Of a stretch of DNA of 44,407 bases, positions 1 through 44,407 are shown piece by piece. Below the pieces are notes generated by a model. It was not told the origin of the DNA. It saw only the letters and a list, made by a program, of their open reading frames with translations, and did not search any database. A program made the position numbers and the translations under genes. Each line of letters starts with the position of its first letter. Within the stretch, counting starts at the first letter, position 1. The stretch is from a virus (Duplodnaviria > Heunggongvirae > Uroviricota > Caudoviricetes). The stretch covers positions 1 through 44,407 of the IMG/VR virus record IMGVR_UViG_3300010279_000003; one strand, 5' to 3'.

Positions 1-123
1 TCATAGACTTCTTCCAGGACGGTAACTCGAACTCCAGTCAGTACCTTATCAACCATGTAACGGTTAAAGGGTGCAGCTTCATTGTAGACCGTAGCCGGTC
101 TCTGTCTGCGGCAATAACCTTAA
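1..123. repeat. Terminal direct repeat, identical to 44285..44407
   Basis: Exact 123-nt identity read directly from both ends of the window. Confidence 0.9.
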
Positions 124-3114: not shown

Positions 3115-3399
3115 TTAACTATAATAGCTCGCTATTAGGTCGTCAACCTGTTTAAACGAACCAACGACAAAAACATTTGCACCACGTTTGCTCATCCGCT
3201 CGTGCTCTCGTAGCTGATGCGGGTCCGGCTTCGTGTTTTCGTCTTTCTTAACCTCGACAAACCAGACTATGCCGCCTGGGAGAATTACCAGCAGGTCAGG
3301 AGCGCCCGCTCTATTTTCGTAGGAAAGTTTACGAACGAGGCCGCCAATGGCCTCGAATTGCTCTTTTGCGTATTTCTGAATCTTGCCTTCCGGTGTCAT
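3115..3399 (-). CDS. VRR-NUC domain nuclease (PD-(D/E)XK fold)
   Basis: 94 aa with PD...EVK motif (APDLLVILPGGIVWFVEVKKDEN). Confidence 0.7.
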   Translation of the reverse strand: MTPEGKIQKYAKEQFEAIGGLVRKLSYENRAGAPDLLVILPGGIVWFVEVKKDENTKPDPHQLREHERMSKRGANVFVVGSFKQVDDLIASYYS

Positions 3400-6725: not shown

Positions 6726-6781
6726 ATCTCGATTCCTCAGTTTTTAGTTTACTCCGGGAAGCTGCCCGGCCAGTGATTAGA

Positions 6782-6810
6782 ACTATAATAGCCAACTATT
6801 CAGGTGTCAA
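6782..6810 (-). promoter_or_regulatory. Sigma70-like promoter, class A (TTGACA-N17-TATAGT)
   Basis: Read on minus strand; near-identical copy at 8922..8950. Confidence 0.55.
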
Positions 6811-8890: not shown

Positions 8891-8921
8891 TATTTATTCT
8901 CCTCTCGTTTGGTATGGGCTA

Positions 8922-8950
8922 ACTATAATAGCGAACTATTCACTTGTCAA
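8922..8950 (-). promoter_or_regulatory. Sigma70-like promoter, class A (TTGACA-N17-TATAGT)
   Basis: Read on minus strand; spacer contains GAATAGTT as in the 6782..6810 copy. Confidence 0.55.
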
Positions 8951-12378: not shown

Positions 12379-12407
12379 TTGCACACCCCAATATAATAGG
12401 ATACTAT
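12379..12407 (+). promoter_or_regulatory. Sigma70-like promoter, class B (TTGCAC-N17-TACTAT)
   Basis: Spacer ...AATATAATAGGATACTATTCA; same family found six times. Confidence 0.6.
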
Positions 12408-12441
12408 TCACTTATCGAAACGAGACAGAGGAGTGAGGGTT

Positions 12442-17510: not shown

Positions 17511-17749
17511 TTACCAGCATTCCTAACCTGATTAAAGAATTCGGCACGATGGCGGAGACATGCCGACAAACTGGCCTCAACGAAATGACGATTGCTAAGT
17601 ACAGCAAAGACGTGAAATGTGAGCGCCACGTAATTTATAACAACCGTCTTATGACGCATGTTAAGACAAGCCCGGTGTTATTCACTCGCCGCGGTATCAC
17701 TAAAACTGAGCAACGCATTGCTAAAGAGGAGAACGAATGCGGCTACTAA
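17507..17749 (+). CDS. Hypothetical protein
   Basis: ATG 17507 inside ORF-track ORF 17483..17749. Confidence 0.5.
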   Translation: MITSIPNLIKEFGTMAETCRQTGLNEMTIAKYSKDVKCERHVIYNNRLMTHVKTSPVLFTRRGITKTEQRIAKEENECGY

Positions 17750-17842
17750 TCATCCCTAACGTCTGGGCTATCGCTGTAGCTAACAACCATTACGGCGGCG
17801 ATGGTAAAAGAGCACCACGACACGGCCTGTATAACTGATACA

Positions 17843-17867
17843 AGCCCTCTACGGAGGGCTTTTCTGT
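17843..17867 (+). terminator. Intrinsic terminator at the end of the early plus-strand block
   Basis: Stem AGCCCTC/GAGGGCT, loop TACG, then TTTTCTG. Confidence 0.55.
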
Positions 17868-17959
17868 ACATCCCGCCCAATCCCCTTATATAATCCCTTT
17901 AGACGCGTAGGGCGCGTCTGGTGCGCTCTGATGGTCAGACGCATATGCAAGGGGATTAT

Positions 17960-18505
17960 ATGAAGCTGAAACTCAAGCAGCCATCGCCAGAGGTGGTGCA
18001 AGCTGCACATGAAGAAGCTGTTAGCGCAAACCGTCGCCGTAAACGACCGCGCGGTAAACAGAGCCTTTATCAATCATCCCGTAATTCCGCCGCGTTGTGG
18101 GACCCGGACTATTGCGACGAATTGATTCGTTTCTTCGACCGCACGTCGTGGGAGCTTGTGCCTACCTCCAAAGGCGACGAACGCCCGCTGATTCAGGACA
18201 AACCGCCGTCACTGGCCCGCTTTGCCTTACGCATCGGCGTCACTATCCCGATTATTAAGCTGTGGCTGCGCGAGATTCCCGCATTCGCAGAAGCATGGGA
18301 GACAGCGCAGGCATTGGAAGAGGCATACTTCACTGAGACAGGGGCCGCAGGTATCTCTGCTACGTTTGCCGCTGCGAAACTTGGCCTTGGCAAAGAGAAA
18401 CCAGTTGAATCCGCCGAAGAAACGGCACCGACTGAGATTATTTTCAGTGTTGCGGAGCCTGTAGGTAAAATTGTAACAACGAACATGGGTGAGGTAGAGG
18501 AATGA
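17960..18505 (+). CDS. terS: Putative terminase small subunit
   Basis: Position immediately upstream of terL with overlapping stop/start; basic N-terminal region; ATG 17960 inside ORF-track ORF 17921..18505. Confidence 0.5.
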   Translation: MKLKLKQPSPEVVQAAHEEAVSANRRRKRPRGKQSLYQSSRNSAALWDPDYCDELIRFFDRTSWELVPTSKGDERPLIQDKPPSLARFALRIGVTIPIIKLWLREIPAFAEAWETAQALEEAYFTETGAAGISATFAAAKLGLGKEKPVESAEETAPTEIIFSVAEPVGKIVTTNMGEVEE

Positions 18506-19764: not shown

Positions 19765-21234
19765 ATGTTAACTATGAACGGTCAGAATCAGGGTGTTAAG
19801 ACAAAACACCGGGAATGGCTACATCACTTCAATAAATGGCAGAAGGTGCGCCACGCGCTGGAAGGCGACCTCATCCGTTACCTGCGCAATGTCGGGAAGA
19901 ACGAGCCTGACCCGACCTATGCGGCACAGCGCCAGGAAGAATACGAGAACGGCGCTATCTGCTACAACTTCACTAAACGTACCCTGGCGGGGATGGTCGG
20001 CAGTGTTATGTGTAAAGACCCTGAGCAGATTATCCCGCCTGAACTTGAGTACCTGTTACGCAACGCTGACGGTTCAGGTGTCGGGCTATGGCAGCACGCG
20101 CAGGATACGCTAATGGAGATTGATTCGGTGGGCCGCGGCGGGTTGCTGGTTGACGCCCCGGAGACAGCCGCGGCGACAGCGGCGGAACAGAACGCGGGGT
20201 TATTAAACCCGGTCATCGCATTTTATACCGCGGAGAACATCATTAACTGGCGGCTTACCCGCGTCGGTTCAGTTAACCGTGTGACAATGGTCGTGCTGCG
20301 TGAGGTGTTGGAATACTCAGAACCAGGGGAAGAGTTTGAAACAAAAGTCGGTGAACAGTACCGTGTCCTTGACCTGGTTGAGGGCCGCTACCGTCAGCGC
20401 ATTTACCGATTCGATGTCGAAGGTGGCGCACAGGGTGATGTAATCGAAATATTCCCGGAACTCGGCGAACAGTTACGTGGCAAAATCCCGTTCACGTTCA
20501 TTGGGGCGAGCAACAACGATGCGACCATCGACGACGCGCCTTTGCTGCCGTTGGCAGAGCTTAATATCGGGCATTTCCGCAACAGTGCAGACAATGAGGA
20601 GTCCAGCTTTGTTGTAGGGCAACCCACTCTGTTCATCGCCCCGGGCGAGAACATGAGCATGGAACAATGGAAAGAAGCCAACCCACACGGTGTGCGCATG
20701 GGGTCGCGTTCAGGTCATAACATCGGCTACGGCGGCAATGCGTTTCTGGTTCAGGCGGGAGAGAACAACCTTGCTAAGCAGAACATGCTGGATAAAGAGA
20801 ATCAGGCCATCCAGATTGGCGCACAGCTTATCACCCCGACGCAGCAAATCACCGCTGAATCGGCCCGTCTGCAACGCGGCGCTGACACGTCTGTTATGGC
20901 GACAATCGCACGTAACGTAAGCATGGCGTACACCGATGCGTTGCGCTGGGTGGCTGCGATGCTAGGGTTGCGTGAAGGCACAGAGATTGAGTTCAAACTG
21001 AATATGGAGTTCTTCCTGCAACCGATGACCGCTCAGGACCGCGCTCAGTGGATGGCTGATATTAACGCAGGCCTGTTACCGGCTACCGCCTACTACGCGG
21101 CATTGCGTAAGGCGGGTGTAACCGACTGGACTGACGAGGATATTCAGAACGCAATCGAGGATACACCGCTGCCGTTAGGTGCGGTTACTCAGGTGACAGG
21201 CGAGATTCCGCAGGAGCCGCGGCAACAGGAGTAA
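19765..21234 (+). CDS. Portal protein
   Basis: 489 aa immediately after terL, acidic C-terminus; assignment by position and size. Confidence 0.75.
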   Translation: MLTMNGQNQGVKTKHREWLHHFNKWQKVRHALEGDLIRYLRNVGKNEPDPTYAAQRQEEYENGAICYNFTKRTLAGMVGSVMCKDPEQIIPPELEYLLRNADGSGVGLWQHAQDTLMEIDSVGRGGLLVDAPETAAATAAEQNAGLLNPVIAFYTAENIINWRLTRVGSVNRVTMVVLREVLEYSEPGEEFETKVGEQYRVLDLVEGRYRQRIYRFDVEGGAQGDVIEIFPELGEQLRGKIPFTFIGASNNDATIDDAPLLPLAELNIGHFRNSADNEESSFVVGQPTLFIAPGENMSMEQWKEANPHGVRMGSRSGHNIGYGGNAFLVQAGENNLAKQNMLDKENQAIQIGAQLITPTQQITAESARLQRGADTSVMATIARNVSMAYTDALRWVAAMLGLREGTEIEFKLNMEFFLQPMTAQDRAQWMADINAGLLPATAYYAALRKAGVTDWTDEDIQNAIEDTPLPLGAVTQVTGEIPQEPRQQE

Positions 21235-21242
21235 AATAGAAA

Positions 21243-21268
21243 AGCCCCATTACGGGGCTTTATTTTAT
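21243..21268. terminator. Bidirectional intrinsic terminator between portal (+) and 21265..21447 (-)
   Basis: Stem AGCCCC/GGGGCT with T-rich tracts on both sides. Confidence 0.6.
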
Positions 21269-21447
21269 ACATCTCTGCTCGCCAGATAGTCACAGCGAGC
21301 TATGGCTAAGGATAAGCTACGGTATGCGCTATCGGATTTAGCGTGGGTAAACCCAGAAATCATTACGTAATACACCCCTTTATCGTTTAGAACCCAGTAT
21401 TTGCCGTTTTCGTGCATTATGTCTTTTTCTTTGAACATTTTAACCAC
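21265..21447 (-). CDS. Hypothetical protein, orphan minus-strand gene in the late region
   Basis: 60 aa; own class B promoter and RBS. Confidence 0.5.
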   Translation of the reverse strand: MVKMFKEKDIMHENGKYWVLNDKGVYYVMISGFTHAKSDSAYRSLSLAIARCDYLASRDV

Positions 21448-21467
21448 CCCCTGTTTAAGTTATCTGA

Positions 21468-21496
21468 ATAGTACCCTATTATATTGGTGTCTGCAA
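21468..21496 (-). promoter_or_regulatory. Sigma70-like promoter, class B (TTGCAG-N17-TACTAT)
   Basis: Read on minus strand; about 45 bp nearly identical to the copy at 24318..24346. Confidence 0.6.
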
Positions 21497-23740: not shown

Positions 23741-23744
23741 TAAA

Positions 23745-23773
23745 AGGCCCCATAATGGGGCCTTAGTTTTATT
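23745..23773. terminator. Bidirectional intrinsic terminator
   Basis: Stem AGGCCCC/GGGGCCT, loop ATAAT, T-rich tail. Confidence 0.6.
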
Positions 23774-24290
23774 TAAATCGCGCAGGCATTAACACCATAA
23801 AGGCCGTGTTTGAAAATTGTATTTTGCATCCTCTGGTTTGGTCCTGGAAATCGAAACGAGCAATTTCATTTTTGTATGCCTTAGAAATCTTGTACGCGTC
23901 TGCCAAATAGCGCAGAGTGAACCCTATACTGTCGACAACACCCGGTGTGATGTGCGCCACGCGTCTCCAGTCAGGAAAGTTTCCTTCTACAACATCTACC
24001 GGAAGTGTACATATAAGCGCACGATTATCGTCATAGAAAGATACACTGCCGTTGTCGTGGTTTACCTCTGCGTAGTTAAATTTAGAAGGCTCTCTCCCTT
24101 TGATGTCTATGAGAGTCCCTTTCTCAACGTTGGTCTTCACATTGTCGCAGAACAATCTATGACTGTCCGTAGACACTATCAATCCTTCAGGGTCTATGTA
24201 AAAAGCGTTCAAATAGTAGCGCACATCATTTTTAGCCCTGCATATTTTCGCCCCTACATACGCAGGGAAAGTAATTACTGTAGTAACCAT
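23769..24290 (-). CDS. Truncated beta sliding clamp (DnaN) homologue: domain II plus the C-terminal half of domain III, no domain I
   Basis: Matches to E. coli DnaN as I recall it: DVRYYLN, TDSHRL (vs TDGHRL), FPDWRRV (vs FPDYRRV), IGF..YL.D, C-terminal VLMPARF (vs VVMPMRL); own promoter and AGGAG RBS. Confidence 0.7.
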   Translation of the reverse strand: MVTTVITFPAYVGAKICRAKNDVRYYLNAFYIDPEGLIVSTDSHRLFCDNVKTNVEKGTLIDIKGREPSKFNYAEVNHDNGSVSFYDDNRALICTLPVDVVEGNFPDWRRVAHITPGVVDSIGFTLRYLADAYKISKAYKNEIARFDFQDQTRGCKIQFSNTAFMVLMPARFK

Positions 24291-24317
24291 TTATCATCTC
24301 CTGTTTAAGTTAACTGA

Positions 24318-24346
24318 ATAGTACCCTATTATATTGGTGTGCGCAA
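24318..24346 (-). promoter_or_regulatory. Sigma70-like promoter, class B (TTGCGC-N17-TACTAT) driving the DnaN-like gene
   Basis: Read on minus strand; conserved leader TTAACTTAAACAGGAG follows. Confidence 0.6.
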
Positions 24347-31582: not shown

Positions 31583-32014
31583 CTAGTAGCGTTTTAAAGC
31601 ATCCGATGTGTGTGTTTTTACGTTATTGTTGAATATCTGTGCATACCACAACCTTTCTTTCGCGTTCCAGTAAACCCCGGTTACTCCTGATTTATTATTA
31701 CGCTGTTTTGACATATTTTTATGATTTTCCGCATTGGACTTTTTAGCTAAGTTAAGCGGTCTATTGTTTATTCGGTTATGGTCTAGATGGTCTATTTGAT
31801 CTGACGAGGTTAGCTTATCGTTAGGATTATTTAAGTCCCAAGCTATACGGTGCGCCGCGTGCCATTTACCCCTGAAAAATATCCTTCTATACCCGTCTCG
31901 CTGTACAGTACCTGCCTCCTCTCCAGCCTTAGCCCTCCCAGACCGTGTTACTCTGTTAAATATCCTTCCTGAAATTAAGTCGTATATGAAAAATTCATTC
32001 CAGTCCATAATCAT
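31583..32014 (-). CDS. HNH homing endonuclease with AP2 domain
   Basis: SDQIDHLDHNRINNRPLNL (HNH_3-like) and GVTGVYWNAKERLWYAQI (AP2-like). Confidence 0.75.
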   Translation of the reverse strand: MIMDWNEFFIYDLISGRIFNRVTRSGRAKAGEEAGTVQRDGYRRIFFRGKWHAAHRIAWDLNNPNDKLTSSDQIDHLDHNRINNRPLNLAKKSNAENHKNMSKQRNNKSGVTGVYWNAKERLWYAQIFNNNVKTHTSDALKRY

Positions 32015-32283: not shown

Positions 32284-32473
32284 TGTTAACTCTCTTAAAT
32301 CGGGCTATGCCTGACTCGTTAATGCTGCCTATTTCAAAGAAGCTGCGATATTTAGGCGAATACATTCTTACGTCGCCGTTCTCTAGGGTGACCCCTTCAT
32401 ATACCGCACCTACTTCGAATCCATTTTTCTCCGCGTACGGACTCACATCGGTGCATTCATACATATCTTTCAT
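32273..32473 (-). CDS. Hypothetical protein
   Basis: 66-aa ORF in operon. Confidence 0.5.
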   Translation of the reverse strand: MKDMYECTDVSPYAEKNGFEVGAVYEGVTLENGDVRMYSPKYRSFFEIGSINESGIARFKRVNSDK

Positions 32474-33600
32474 CCCAGCATCTCCGGTGAAATAGTTAAA
32501 CGTGCGACCTCGCCATATTCGGCGCTATAAGTAATTACGTTTGCACTACGGCCCGACATCCATCCGCCGCGGGAGGCGTAGGCGTCTTTGGCCGCTAAGG
32601 TGCGGTGTTGCTCAACAATCATGTTACGGCTTTCTACAATCTTCTGGTGGTGCAGGTGGCCTACGTGGGCGTAGCTGTAAACACTCTCACCGAACGCTTT
32701 GCGGAACTTGGCAATCATAACCGGTTCAATAGCGTCGAATCGTGCTTTATGCCCGTGATGGAAGAACAGCGTAGTTTTGCCGTGTTGCACCATCTTGTAA
32801 ACATCCGGCGACGTATCGACAATCACTCGGCTGTCGTTTGAGTATAAAACCGTGAACATTTCGGCAAGCCATACGGAGCCGACAGGGTCGTGATTTCCTT
32901 GCACGATAAGCAAGCGAACATTTTTGTGCTTAACCAGCGCCATATCAACGACACGGCGTACCATACGAATCATGTAGCGTACAAGTTTCTGATAGCGGGT
33001 GTCCGCATCAAGAACATGGCGCGACTCTGGCGTAACGGCATCCAGGCTATCGAAGTGCGCGAAGTCTCCTAGCAGATTAATAACACCCGTTCCTGCGTCA
33101 GGCGCTTTCTGGAATGCTGCATCGAACCATCGAGAGAACAGGTCTTCCGCGATTTTCATATCCCAGTCGTCGCCGCTCTCGTCCGCCCATGCCAGCATAC
33201 CGAGATGAAAATCAGATACCGTGTAAAGATTGAGTAGCTTGTCGTCACGTTTGGCGCGTGCCACTTTAACAGGCGCAACGGGGGTAATCTCTGACTTCAT
33301 GCCTTCGATTACGGCCTTCATTAACTCGACCTGACGTTCTGCGTCAGTGTCGGTCTTAACCCATTGCAGTTTAGTGTTGCCGAACTCGTCCACCAGAGAC
33401 GACGTACCTTTAATCTTGTAGCCGTCAGGCACAAGGTGACTAACGTCGCGACCGTGGCCTACACCTTTCTTAGCCAGCTTCGCTTTACGGATACGGATAA
33501 CGCGGTCTGAGATTCCGTACTTACGTGCGATATCAATAATTTTTGTTCCGGCGTTCAATTCTTCCCGTAACTGTTCGTCGGTTATTTTCTTATGAGCCAT
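32470..33600 (-). CDS. HTH-domain protein fused to a calcineurin-like metallophosphoesterase (SbcD/Mre11-like motifs)
   Basis: N-terminal HTH (IIDIARKYGISDRVIRIRKAK); MPP motifs SDFHLG, GDFAHFD, GNHD, GHLHH. Confidence 0.7.
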   Translation of the reverse strand: MAHKKITDEQLREELNAGTKIIDIARKYGISDRVIRIRKAKLAKKGVGHGRDVSHLVPDGYKIKGTSSLVDEFGNTKLQWVKTDTDAERQVELMKAVIEGMKSEITPVAPVKVARAKRDDKLLNLYTVSDFHLGMLAWADESGDDWDMKIAEDLFSRWFDAAFQKAPDAGTGVINLLGDFAHFDSLDAVTPESRHVLDADTRYQKLVRYMIRMVRRVVDMALVKHKNVRLLIVQGNHDPVGSVWLAEMFTVLYSNDSRVIVDTSPDVYKMVQHGKTTLFFHHGHKARFDAIEPVMIAKFRKAFGESVYSYAHVGHLHHQKIVESRNMIVEQHRTLAAKDAYASRGGWMSGRSANVITYSAEYGEVARLTISPEMLG

Positions 33601-33831: not shown

Positions 33832-33872
33832 GGGGTAGCTCCTGTTTGAGTTAACATTGTTGGTGTAAGTGA

Positions 33873-33901
33873 ATAGTATCCTATTATGTTGGGGTGTGCA
33901 A
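33873..33901 (-). promoter_or_regulatory. Sigma70-like promoter, class B (TTGCAC-N17-TACTAT) driving the accessory operon
   Basis: Read on minus strand; spacer ACCCCAACATAATAGGA. Confidence 0.6.
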
Positions 33902-42870: not shown

Positions 42871-44407
42871 ATGTCAAGCGGATGCGGTGACGTTTTAAGC
42901 CTGGCGGATTTACAGACCGCCAAGAAACACCAGATTTTTGAAGCTGAAGTTATCACCGGTAAATCTGGTGGGGTTGCTGGCGGCGCTGATATTGATTACG
43001 CTACCAACCAAGTTACTGGTCAGGTGCAAAAGACACTCCCTGCGGTTCTTAAAAGCATTGGTTTTGCCGTGGCTGATTTTAGTTTCGATTCTGGGGGTAC
43101 TCTTGCATCCGGGGACGAGGACAAGATAGTGCTCTGGCCGTTGCCGGGTGGCGATGGTCAGTACTACTCCTGGACTGGTGCGTATCCTAAGATTGTTCCC
43201 GCATCCTCGTCCCCGACAACAGGATGGAAACTTATAGACGGCTCTGCATTACGAATCGACTTGTCCGAATTTAGCGGGGCTTCTCTGGTCGGGTACTCGT
43301 ACGACGGCAGCCTAAGCACCACAAAAAGAACGGTTGCTGATAAATTAGACGATATGGTCAGCCTTTGGGATTTTCACTGCGATTCATCCGGAGATGTAAT
43401 TCAGCCAGGGGTTAGCGTTGACAGTCGTCAGTATCTACAAGCAGCTATAGACTACCTGAACGCAAACGGAGGCGGCACACTACATATACCGGAAGGTGCA
43501 TGGTATCTTAACAGCCTCAGTACAGGGGCGGTATCAGGACACAGTGGAATTATACAGCTTAAAAGTAATGTTAACATTAAGATAGACGGTACTATTAAAG
43601 TAGGGTCTGCTTTGGCCTCCTCGTCATTTAAGGTGTTTGTAGGCTTTGATAATGGTGACCCTGCAAGCTCCGGTAATCTCGATAATTGCCATATTTATGG
43701 CAACGGTACGATAGACTTTGGTAGCTATGACTTTGGTGCGACATCACAGTTACGCAACGGTATCGCTTTTGGTCGCAGCTACAACTGCTCAGTAACAGGT
43801 ATTACTTTCCAGAACGGTGATGTTACTTGGGGTGTTACCCTTGGCTGGAATGGGTATGGGTCTAATTGTAAGGTATCTAACTGTAAGTTTATTAATTTGA
43901 TACAGAGTGCTAACAATGCTGACCACAGTACCGTATATGTTAACTGTCCTTTCAGTGGTGTAGATAACTGCATATTCCGTGCGGTGAGTTCAAGGGCGCA
44001 AGTTATAGCGTGTTCGGTGGAACTACATCAACATGATACTTGGTACAGAGATTCAATTATCTCTGGATACACACGCGGCTGTTATGTGGCTTTGCATGGG
44101 GCAGAATCTGCGGGAGCGGGCACATACCTGTACAATGCTGTTGTGTCAGGGGTAATTGGTGCTATTTCCGGGCAAGCAGTAATTTTAGCCGCCGGTCCGG
44201 ATTCAACAACCACTACCCACATTAACGGGGTGTCTATCGAGAACTGTCGATTTACCGCCGGTAGTCAGGCAGGTATGTGCAGCTTCATAGACTTCTTCCA
44301 GGACGGTAACTCGAACTCCAGTCAGTACCTTATCAACCATGTAACGGTTAAAGGGTGCAGCTTCATTGTAGACCGTAGCCGGTCTCTGTCTGCGGCAATA
44401 ACCTTAA
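42871..44407 (+). CDS. Tailspike, N-terminal part with right-handed beta-helix (pectate-lyase-like depolymerase); continues at 1..752
   Basis: ATG 42871 after GAGGA RBS; repeated NCxF/NG turns (NCHIYGNG, NCSVTGITFQNG, NCKVSNCKF); frame is open to the window end. Confidence 0.8.
   Translation, partial: MSSGCGDVLSLADLQTAKKHQIFEAEVITGKSGGVAGGADIDYATNQVTGQVQKTLPAVLKSIGFAVADFSFDSGGTLASGDEDKIVLWPLPGGDGQYYSWTGAYPKIVPASSSPTTGWKLIDGSALRIDLSEFSGASLVGYSYDGSLSTTKRTVADKLDDMVSLWDFHCDSSGDVIQPGVSVDSRQYLQAAIDYLNANGGGTLHIPEGAWYLNSLSTGAVSGHSGIIQLKSNVNIKIDGTIKVGSALASSSFKVFVGFDNGDPASSGNLDNCHIYGNGTIDFGSYDFGATSQLRNGIAFGRSYNCSVTGITFQNGDVTWGVTLGWNGYGSNCKVSNCKFINLIQSANNADHSTVYVNCPFSGVDNCIFRAVSSRAQVIACSVELHQHDTWYRDSIISGYTRGCYVALHGAESAGAGTYLYNAVVSGVIGAISGQAVILAAGPDSTTTTHINGVSIENCRFTAGSQAGMCSFIDFFQDGNSNSSQYLINHVTVKGCSFIVDRSRSLSAAITL
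44285..44407. repeat. Terminal direct repeat, identical to 1..123
   Basis: Exact identity read directly. Confidence 0.9.

Follow-up and report, generated by a model that had tools for sequence, protein, structure and literature searches.

Packaging sites typically adjoin terS, the gene of the small terminase subunit, as is the case in lambda and SPP1. Sequestration of the T4 gene e type is said to have been described by McPheeters et al. in 1986. For Escherichia coli ompA, Emory, Bouvet and Belasco reportedly described in 1992 a 5' untranslated region (UTR) in which hp1 and hp2 are followed by the ribosome-binding site, and which acts as a 5' stabiliser. In our study, we analysed the region directly upstream of terS in a viral DNA of 44,407 nucleotides (nt) (IMG/VR record IMGVR_UViG_3300010279_000003; this whole stretch is called the window below), which was found to be a complete genome of Kagunavirus (Guernseyvirinae). 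Two further phage systems were used for comparison. In T4, the initiation regions of the genes e, soc, 49 and I-TevI are sequestered in long transcripts, and the late promoter lies inside the 5' arm of the hairpin (PMC3014915). The put RNAs of HK022 are cis-acting antiterminators; they measure about 70 nt and have triplex features as well as stems that are long and bulged (PMC9378689). The region of the window was found to contain a putative terminator, followed by a candidate host-type promoter and an RNA leader of two hairpins. We consider it very probable that this anatomy, a promoter with a sense-strand RNA leader behind it, has been read correctly.

The region was collected from IMG/VR, GenBank phages and metagenomes. 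The relatives comprised Kagunavirus, Jerseyvirus, the phiEap-2, PSDA-2, St162 and TS33 types, Dhillonvirus and metagenomic lineages; a pattern scan of the metagenomes gave mostly chance matches and only few new variants. Among phages with differing upstream genes the similarity starts sharply, exactly at the terminator stem. Judged by sequence comparison, the layout of the module (terminator, host-type promoter, two-hairpin RNA leader) is common to several genera of related phages.

The leader of the window contained two hairpins on the plus strand. Hairpin 1 (HP1; 17901..17919) has the form AGACGCG(U) AGG (G)CGCGUCU, with the predicted transcript start, A17901, at its base. Hairpin 2 (HP2; 17921..17944), which emerged from folding and covariation, consists of GUGCG, a bulged C, UCUGA, the loop UGG, UCAGA and CGCAU. 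An earlier note on this DNA had pointed out the first of them (AGACGCG-TAGGG-CGCGTCT), which was confirmed in the sequence, and had missed the second. The two hairpins were separated by the single nucleotide G17920, their stems of 8 and 10 base pairs (bp) were regular, and the whole element was 44 nt long. HP1 and HP2 together folded at -23.1 kcal/mol (z = -3.5), a value that none of 200 shuffles equalled.

The pairing of both hairpins was conserved. Among 43 close relatives, 99.1% of HP1 and 96.7% of HP2 was paired, and every one-sided change in HP1 gave a G.U pair on the sense strand. RNAalifold, run on a plain MAFFT alignment of 33 diverse leaders, recovered HP1 as well as the inner stem of HP2; compensation was seen in 7 of the 12 pairs. 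A covariance model built from the 33-leader alignment found exactly one copy in 91 of 92 sources, and in the window it matched only 17894-17962. In the model-derived alignment 91.7% of the cells were paired, whereas slid controls were 21-52% paired, and the covariation score was reached by 0 of 500 shuffles. Nine of 18 pairs were changed on both sides; this count is an underestimate, because HP1 of Dhillonvirus (AGAUGGC AGG GCCGUCU, perfect by eye) was misaligned by one column. The stem sequence of HP1 was fully different in Dhillonvirus and in the sequences L331 and L355, and the inner stem of HP2 covaried (C-G, A-U, G-C; U-A, C-G, G-C). While the stems changed, the HP1 loop GGG and the HP2 apex GA-UGG-UC were nearly invariant and the bulge on the 5' side of HP2 was kept, across very divergent phages. 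The leader was nearly unchanged even where the TerS proteins were only about 25% identical. The sense strand folded better than the antisense strand in all 28 distinct variants (mean -19.6 against -15.2 kcal/mol), which argues that the leader hairpins are a sense-strand RNA structure and act as RNA. Anatomy, conservation, covariation and strand specificity were all observed in the sequences compared.

No Rfam family matched the whole window at the gathering score, and a search of 17780-18040 at E values up to 10 returned chance-level hits only. A second copy of the hairpins, sought throughout the genome, was not found. The two-hairpin leader thus appears to be an undescribed conserved motif of several phage genera, absent from Rfam. 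An alternative hairpin, CGCGUCUG (17913-17920) with CAGACGC (17936-17942), was broken in Jerseyvirus and in the phiEap-2-like phages (by eye), and a riboswitch-like switch was therefore rejected. CsrA-type GGA loops and complementarity to the 3' end of 16S rRNA were checked by eye, and neither gave a convincing match.

HP1 could also be taken for a DNA operator, that is, a 7-bp inverted repeat with a 5-bp centre, from +1 to +19, on which a dimeric repressor would block the promoter early. Such a role would suit a perfect palindrome lying over the predicted start site, and the palindrome in the spacer of the other promoters of the genome (described below) would mean that operator control exists there. 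The half-sites of HP1, however, drift asymmetrically while the RNA pairing is kept, as in AGACGCU / GGUGUCU of Jerseyvirus and AGAUGCG / CGCGUCU of the phiEap-2 type. The stem is replaced in the three divergent lineages named above, and the genome holds no second copy of the site, so that we regard an operator as highly improbable.

The earlier note had further considered that the region might be related to packaging initiation. The conserved block would then be a pac or cos-like DNA site, bound or cut by terminase, in the manner of lambda cosB or SPP1 pacL. Sites of this kind are typically found next to terS, HP1 forms a palindrome of 19 bp, and Jerseyviruses are reported to package by the headful mode, probably from a pac site of unknown position (PMC10783031). 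HP1 of PSDA-2 and St162 (GGTGCGCAGGGC) and that of TS33 (GATGCGCAGAGC) moreover agree at 11 of 12 positions with the cohesive end of phage Chi, GGTGCGCAGAGC. These Chi-like stretches were located at 523-534 in L278, 523-534 in L279 and 522-533 in L277; their counterpart in the window is 17902-17913. HP1 of the window, on the other hand, agrees with Chi at only 8 of 12 positions, chance alone gives about one 12-mer with at most one mismatch in every 0.45 Mb, and the sequence around the Chi cos site is unlike the leader; the likeness is probably a coincidence. Against a packaging site stands also the pattern of substitutions, which keep the pairing through G.U on one strand only, as those in a duplex DNA site would not. 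The block lacks repeated binding boxes and occurs only once, and it hardly alters while TerS diverges to about 25% identity. The fixed ends of phiEap-2 were reported about 5.7 kb away (PMC4913238), and no termini were detected by PhageTerm in fBC-Eco01, a phage with the same TerS as the window. The starts of database records near terS mostly reflect an annotated long terS start and so are uninformative on packaging ends. A role in packaging initiation was thus left unsupported by the RNA-type substitutions, the single copy and the constancy of the leader, and we rate a packaging site as very unlikely.

The candidate promoter lies on the plus strand directly before HP1. It contained a perfect -10 hexamer, TATAAT (17889..17894), followed by the pyrimidine-rich discriminator CCCTTT (17895..17900), which precedes the predicted start and can pair with the Shine-Dalgarno sequence AAGGGG of terS. 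A -35-like hexamer, TGTACA (17865..17870; 4 of 6 matches), was found at a spacer of 18 nt, overlapping the end of the terminator T-tract. The promoter scanner listed TGTACA-18 nt-TATAAT as a promoter with 10 of 12 matches, and there was no TG extension. The TATAAT by itself was non-significant, as promoter-like matches in the region were as frequent as the shuffle expectation; the promoter is credible because of its conservation and not because of the TATAAT match alone.

The -10 hexamer was kept in about 12 lineages as TATAAT, or as TACAAT in Jerseyvirus and L329-L331, always with C as the next nucleotide. In all lineages the distance from the -10 hexamer to the base of HP1 was 6-8 nt, and the transcript start is therefore predicted at the foot of the hairpin. 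TGTACA and TTTTCTGTACA were invariant in Kagunavirus and Jerseyvirus, where the 18-nt spacer differs at most positions and keeps its length. The phiEap-2, PSDA-2, St162, TS33, L348 and L354 types contained TTGCCT, TTGCCA or TTGCTA as the -35 hexamer with a 17-nt spacer, and Dhillonvirus and L355 contained an extended -10, TGnTATAAT. This pattern is supported by comparison as the one expected of a real sigma-70 promoter. We infer promoter activity, as well as a start at A17901 (plus or minus 1 nt), the latter from the position of the -10 hexamer. Additional copies of a TGTACA-N18-TANAAT promoter were searched for in the genome and none was found. Several isolate records of Dhillonvirus (L341-L344) begin at, or one base before, the TATAAT of the leader promoter.

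The proposed intrinsic terminator of the upstream plus-strand gene block was located at 17842..17867. In RNA it consists of the stem AAGCCCUC / GAGGGCUU, the loop UACG and the tail UUUUCUGU; in the DNA, the stem AAGCCCTC / GAGGGCTT (17842-17861) with the loop TACG is followed by the tail TTTTCTGT. The stem of 8 bp, 5 of them G-C, was 92.7% paired in the relatives, and two of its pairs showed compensated changes (from U-A to G-C in 7 sequences and from C-G to A-U in L261). Better tails were found in the relatives, e.g., TTCTTTTTG and TTTTTTGTG. Of the claims of the earlier note on this part of the region, the terminator (given there as 17843..17867) is present and its stem covaries, and the perfect TATAAT was likewise confirmed. 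The remark that the TATAAT lacks a good -35 holds in so far as TGTACA has only 4 of 6 matches, but this hexamer is invariant in Kagunavirus and Jerseyvirus. As to the suggestion of a late promoter, the comparison supports a promoter, whereas nothing shows that it is late.

The terS initiation region was found to be complementary to the sequence upstream of the predicted start. The Shine-Dalgarno sequence AAGGGG (17949..17954, plus strand) is separated from the AUG by 5 nt. The 5' arm of the helix, UUAUAUAAUCCCUUU (17886..17900), holds the -10 hexamer and the discriminator and is present only in transcripts begun upstream; the 3' arm, AAGGGGAUUAUAUGA (17949..17963), holds the Shine-Dalgarno sequence and the AUG, with a duplex energy of -17 kcal/mol. 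The resulting RNA helix of 17886-17900 with 17949-17963 has 15 bp, two of them G.U, covers AAGGGG and the whole AUG, and was found in both the minimum-energy and the centroid folds of 17868-17990. The inverted repeat of the earlier note, ATATAATCCC (17888-17897) / GGGATTATAT (17952-17961), is part of this pairing; its coordinates were exact and the ATG (17960-17962) does overlap the second arm, but the arms as written were unequal and the RNA helix runs to 15 bp. A second complement to the Shine-Dalgarno region AAGGGGAUU (17949-17957) is the spacer segment AAUCCCCUU (17879..17887, plus strand), which was the partner in the minimum-energy fold of the commonest Kagunavirus variant.

In the folds, RNA that reads through from upstream adopts a three-way junction in which the 15-bp helix is the closing stem. 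The energy of this fold is -42.8 kcal/mol (z = -2.7), and that of the promoter transcript from 17901 is -30 kcal/mol. The predicted mean unpaired probability of the Shine-Dalgarno sequence and AUG in the window fell from 0.54 in the promoter transcript to 0.19 in the read-through RNA, and over all lineages tested the predicted mean accessibility fell from 0.52-0.71 to 0.19-0.49. The read-through minimum-energy folds of the other lineages tested also paired the Shine-Dalgarno sequence with sequence upstream of the start. The duplex of the window was matched by about 0.2% of the 24-nt windows of the genome (p about 0.002), and the upstream complementarity of the terS initiation region (-20.3 kcal/mol) exceeded that of all other control genes (best -18.5). 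Cognate pairs of arm and initiation region were better than non-cognate pairs (permutation p = 0.003).

The helix may, alternatively, be a long inverted repeat without a function of its own. The TA-rich -10 and the pyrimidine discriminator would often be complementary to a purine Shine-Dalgarno sequence and an AT-rich spacer, and selection would act only on the promoter, the hairpins and the ribosome-binding site. We give this explanation a little short of an even chance. Pairing is at background in many relatives, and the recombinant L129 pairs poorly. The helix of the window, by contrast, has 15 bp and ends exactly at the predicted start site. Compensated changes were found in Jerseyvirus (C-G to U-A) and in L034 (U-A to C-G), and L021 contained a change that preserves a G.U pair. 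The discriminator was found to track the Shine-Dalgarno sequence, as CCT/AGG, CTCCT/AGGAG (PSDA-2) and CCTG/CAGG in several lineages and as CCTGA/TCAGG in L348; that it follows the Shine-Dalgarno sequence in PSDA-2 and L348 speaks against a repeat without function. The phiEap-2-like phages contained an independent second helix, of the -35 region with terS codons 3-7 (p = 0.003).

In phiEap-2 (L124, about 1470-1482 and 1584-1595), PSDA-2 and St162, the -35 region GCCTTTGTCAAT is complementary to codons 3-7, ATTGGCAAGGC. This extra helix of the phiEap-2 type has 11 bp and lengthens the read-through hairpin to about -45 kcal/mol.

We propose that the region would be the junction of two transcription units in a virulent Kagunavirus. 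The terminator (17842-17867) would stop transcription from the lysis and accessory gene block, and a host sigma-70-type promoter, packed against the terminator, would initiate the mRNA of the terS-terL-portal operon near A17901. HP1 and HP2, which make up the first 44 nt of this mRNA, would be a cap against 5'-end-dependent decay, like the ompA 5' stem-loop, and the leader would keep the Shine-Dalgarno sequence and the AUG open in the promoter transcript. RNA that leaks through the terminator would fold into the three-way junction, because the -10 hexamer and the discriminator are complementary to the Shine-Dalgarno sequence, spacer and AUG, and its 15-bp helix would hide the terS initiation region. 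The transcript begun at the promoter itself has no 5' arm and would be translatable, which is the logic of T4 gene e. For the whole mechanism, with terminator, promoter, stabilising leader and read-through silencing taken together, we see an even chance. Taken singly, the stabiliser role of HP1 and HP2 is put forward tentatively, and the translational occlusion of read-through RNA is likewise a possibility that we hold with some reserve. The occlusion of the terS start by the helix is suggestive only, because the conservation of the helix is patchy. The translational control named in the earlier note is thus plausible, in that the Shine-Dalgarno sequence and AUG are predicted to be hidden in transcripts begun upstream, although strong pairing was confined to some of the relatives.

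A number of points weigh against the proposed mechanism. The hexamer TGTACA is a weak -35, and the terminator was left uncalled by a simple scanner because its T-run is interrupted. The literature on transcription starts or pac sites of Guernseyvirinae and Dhillonvirus gave nothing usable; the only RNA-seq paper was too coarse. The pairing was strong in the window, L021 and L034, but weak or absent in L279, L334, L330, L331 and L354 (p = 0.56-0.9) and marginal in the commonest Kagunavirus variant (p = 0.015-0.05), whose helix contains an internal U.C mismatch, as well as in typical Jerseyvirus (p about 0.1). The p value of the window weakens to roughly 0.02-0.05 when the search over about 100 nt of upstream sequence is allowed for, and in the permutation test the three Kagunavirus representatives have one arm in common, so that the lineages are non-independent. 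The background-level pairing, the U.C mismatch and the weakened p value are equally what a repeat without function would give. The read-through flux may be small, as the terminator stands between the upstream genes and the helix, and the upstream block contains lysis genes, which are not obviously expressed earlier in the infection cycle. The invariant loops (GGG and GA-UGG-UC), lastly, are unneeded by a 5' stabiliser and hint at specific recognition.

Such recognition would make the leader a specific regulatory RNA, its loops being recognised either in a modification of RNA polymerase for anti-pausing or antitermination, as with the put RNAs of HK022, or by a translational repressor or autoregulator that sets a low, fixed output of terminase and portal. 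The loop nucleotides and the 5'-side bulge of HP2, kept while the stems change, fit this explanation, and so does the pair of hairpins one nucleotide apart right after the promoter, which resembles the layout of putL (PMC9378689). The maintenance of the leader at about 25% TerS identity would point to a host factor or a conserved phage factor, and the lack, in this promoter, of the palindrome of the phage's other promoters would point to a separate control class. Nevertheless, the leader of 44 nt has short regular stems, whereas a put RNA has about 70 nt, bulged stems and a triplex, and there is no Rfam match. The operon is 3.3 kb, has its own terminator and is followed by blocks with promoters of their own, so that processive antitermination is unneeded; no candidate binding protein was identified, and the element is present in a single copy per genome. 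We therefore consider a specific regulatory RNA unlikely, and a put-like antiterminator was rejected on its misfit in size and shape, on the short operon and on the independently promoted downstream blocks.

In its broadest form, the HP1-HP2 leader could represent an undescribed class of cis-acting phage RNA that Guernseyvirinae, Dhillonvirus and related siphophages share in their packaging operons. RNA polymerase, the ribosome or a conserved phage protein would read the invariant loops, and this would determine when, or how strongly, terminase and portal are expressed, alongside a three-way junction that switches off the terS ribosome-binding site in read-through RNA; this proposal is a doubtful one. 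The module is mostly ordinary, being composed of a terminator, a promoter and a 5' leader, and what is new in it is the leader motif and a possible T4-like occlusion around a sigma-70 promoter. A phage requires only small, fixed amounts of terminase and portal, and little is known of how virulent siphophages without an RNA polymerase of their own set this level. The module is compact, widely conserved and easily mutated, occurs in therapy phages and in the BASEL collection, and offers a candidate RNA motif outside Rfam. Should the occlusion of read-through RNA prove true, the principle known from T4 gene e would also hold for a sigma-70 promoter, and in a group of phages unrelated to T4; otherwise, the region is still an ordinary promoter and leader of the packaging operon.

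The gene terS was found at 17960..18505 on the plus strand and matched PHROG 3064 ('terminase', E = 3.5e-72). Its start was assigned to ATG 17960, which the comparison indicates is the true one. The in-frame GTG 17921 and ATG 17945, used as the terS start in many records, were rejected on frame, residue changes and context. A +1 indel breaks the reading frame of 17921/17945 in most phiEap-2-like sequences, and wherever Kagunavirus and Jerseyvirus differ within 17921-17959, the encoded residue is altered; this extension is therefore non-coding. The upstream start codon lies inside the HP2 stem and is not preceded by a Shine-Dalgarno sequence. Several GenBank records begin exactly at the upstream in-frame GTG/ATG inside HP2. 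The corrected start codon of terS applies to many database records.

The stop codon of terS overlaps the start of terL at 18502. The terL gene, which follows terS directly, matched Pfam Terminase_6N and Terminase_6C, and the next large open reading frame (ORF; 19765-21234, plus strand) was taken as the portal gene from gene order alone. The terS-terL-portal block, which gives an operon of only 3.3 kb, is closed by a bidirectional terminator at 21241. A lysozyme gene, a NinH-like gene and small ORFs were found upstream of the region, likewise on the plus strand. The last of these upstream frames, an ORF of 33 codons (MRLLIIPNVWAIAVANNHYGGDGKRAPRHGLYN; 17737-17838, plus strand; PHROG 32259), is preceded by a strong Shine-Dalgarno sequence, and 4 nt separate its end from the terminator. 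Many phages of Kagunavirus and Jerseyvirus carry it before the module, and other genes replace it in some relatives; in the phiEap-2-like contig L353, a diverged ORF of similar sequence precedes the terminator (by eye). The first 123 nt of the window (1-123) were identical to the last 123 nt (44285-44407), and the window is therefore one complete genome, circularly closed or permuted, of 44,284 bp with an assembly overlap. Prophage relatives were searched for in bacterial genomes and none was found.

The other promoters of the genome were found to form a family with the palindrome TGAATAGTAnCCTATTATATTGG in the spacer, which the terS promoter does not have. On the plus strand they were located at 21465-21487, 24315-24337 and 33870-33892, each just before a late-gene block and each with a poor -35. 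The copies on the minus strand were located at 12388-12410, 8921-8950, 6781-6810 and 3117-3146; their -35 hexamers were TTGACA (the 8950 and 6810 copies), TTGACG (3146) and the poor TCGATA (12418). The palindrome looks like a shared operator or activator site. A promoter with this palindrome was earlier called a phage-polymerase promoter (PMC9825357). The plus-strand morphogenesis region is interrupted by the minus-strand ORFs 21265-21447, 23769-24290, 31583-32014 and 32470-33600, and terminator-like hairpins adjoin the first three of them, at 21241-21261 (both strands) and at 23744 and 32028 (plus strand). The late region thus consists of several units with promoters of their own.

With lambda cosB and SPP1 pacL, the region has in common a conserved non-coding block directly upstream of the small terminase gene. 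It differs from them in its sense-strand RNA pattern of substitution, its single copy, the lack of repeated boxes and its insensitivity to the divergence of TerS. The likeness to the HK022 put RNAs lies in two stem-loops with a minimal spacer, right after a sigma-70 promoter and in cis to a phage operon. Put-type RNAs also act through the beta-prime zinc-binding domain of RNA polymerase and give read-through of distant terminators, for which the context of the leader suggests no need. The 44-nt element with its regular stems of 8 and 10 bp was set apart from them by the published description of put, with no put sequence aligned; the operon is also short here, and the downstream units are self-promoted. 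The ompA 5' UTR is resembled in the order of the parts, namely a stable hairpin at or within one nucleotide of the predicted 5' end, a second hairpin and then a single-stranded ribosome-binding site. Here the leader is probably much shorter, since only about 59 nt lie between the predicted start (17901) and the ATG (17960); its 5' end is a predicted one, and the sequence of its loops is conserved, although a generic stabiliser has no need of this.

The comparison with T4 gene e shows differences in the promoter, which is of the sigma-70 type here and of the gp55 type (TATAAATA) in T4, and in the helix, which in the window is long-range and encloses two hairpins in a three-way junction, whereas that of T4 is a simple local hairpin. 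In the window a terminator precedes the element, the gene is terS, the conservation of the pairing is patchy, and the arrangement is one predicted from sequence and folding. What the two have in common is a helix that hides the Shine-Dalgarno sequence and AUG only in RNA begun upstream, as is predicted here, and a promoter built into the helix itself: the -10 hexamer (17889-17894) lies within the 5' arm (17886-17900), and this arm ends one nucleotide before the predicted start.

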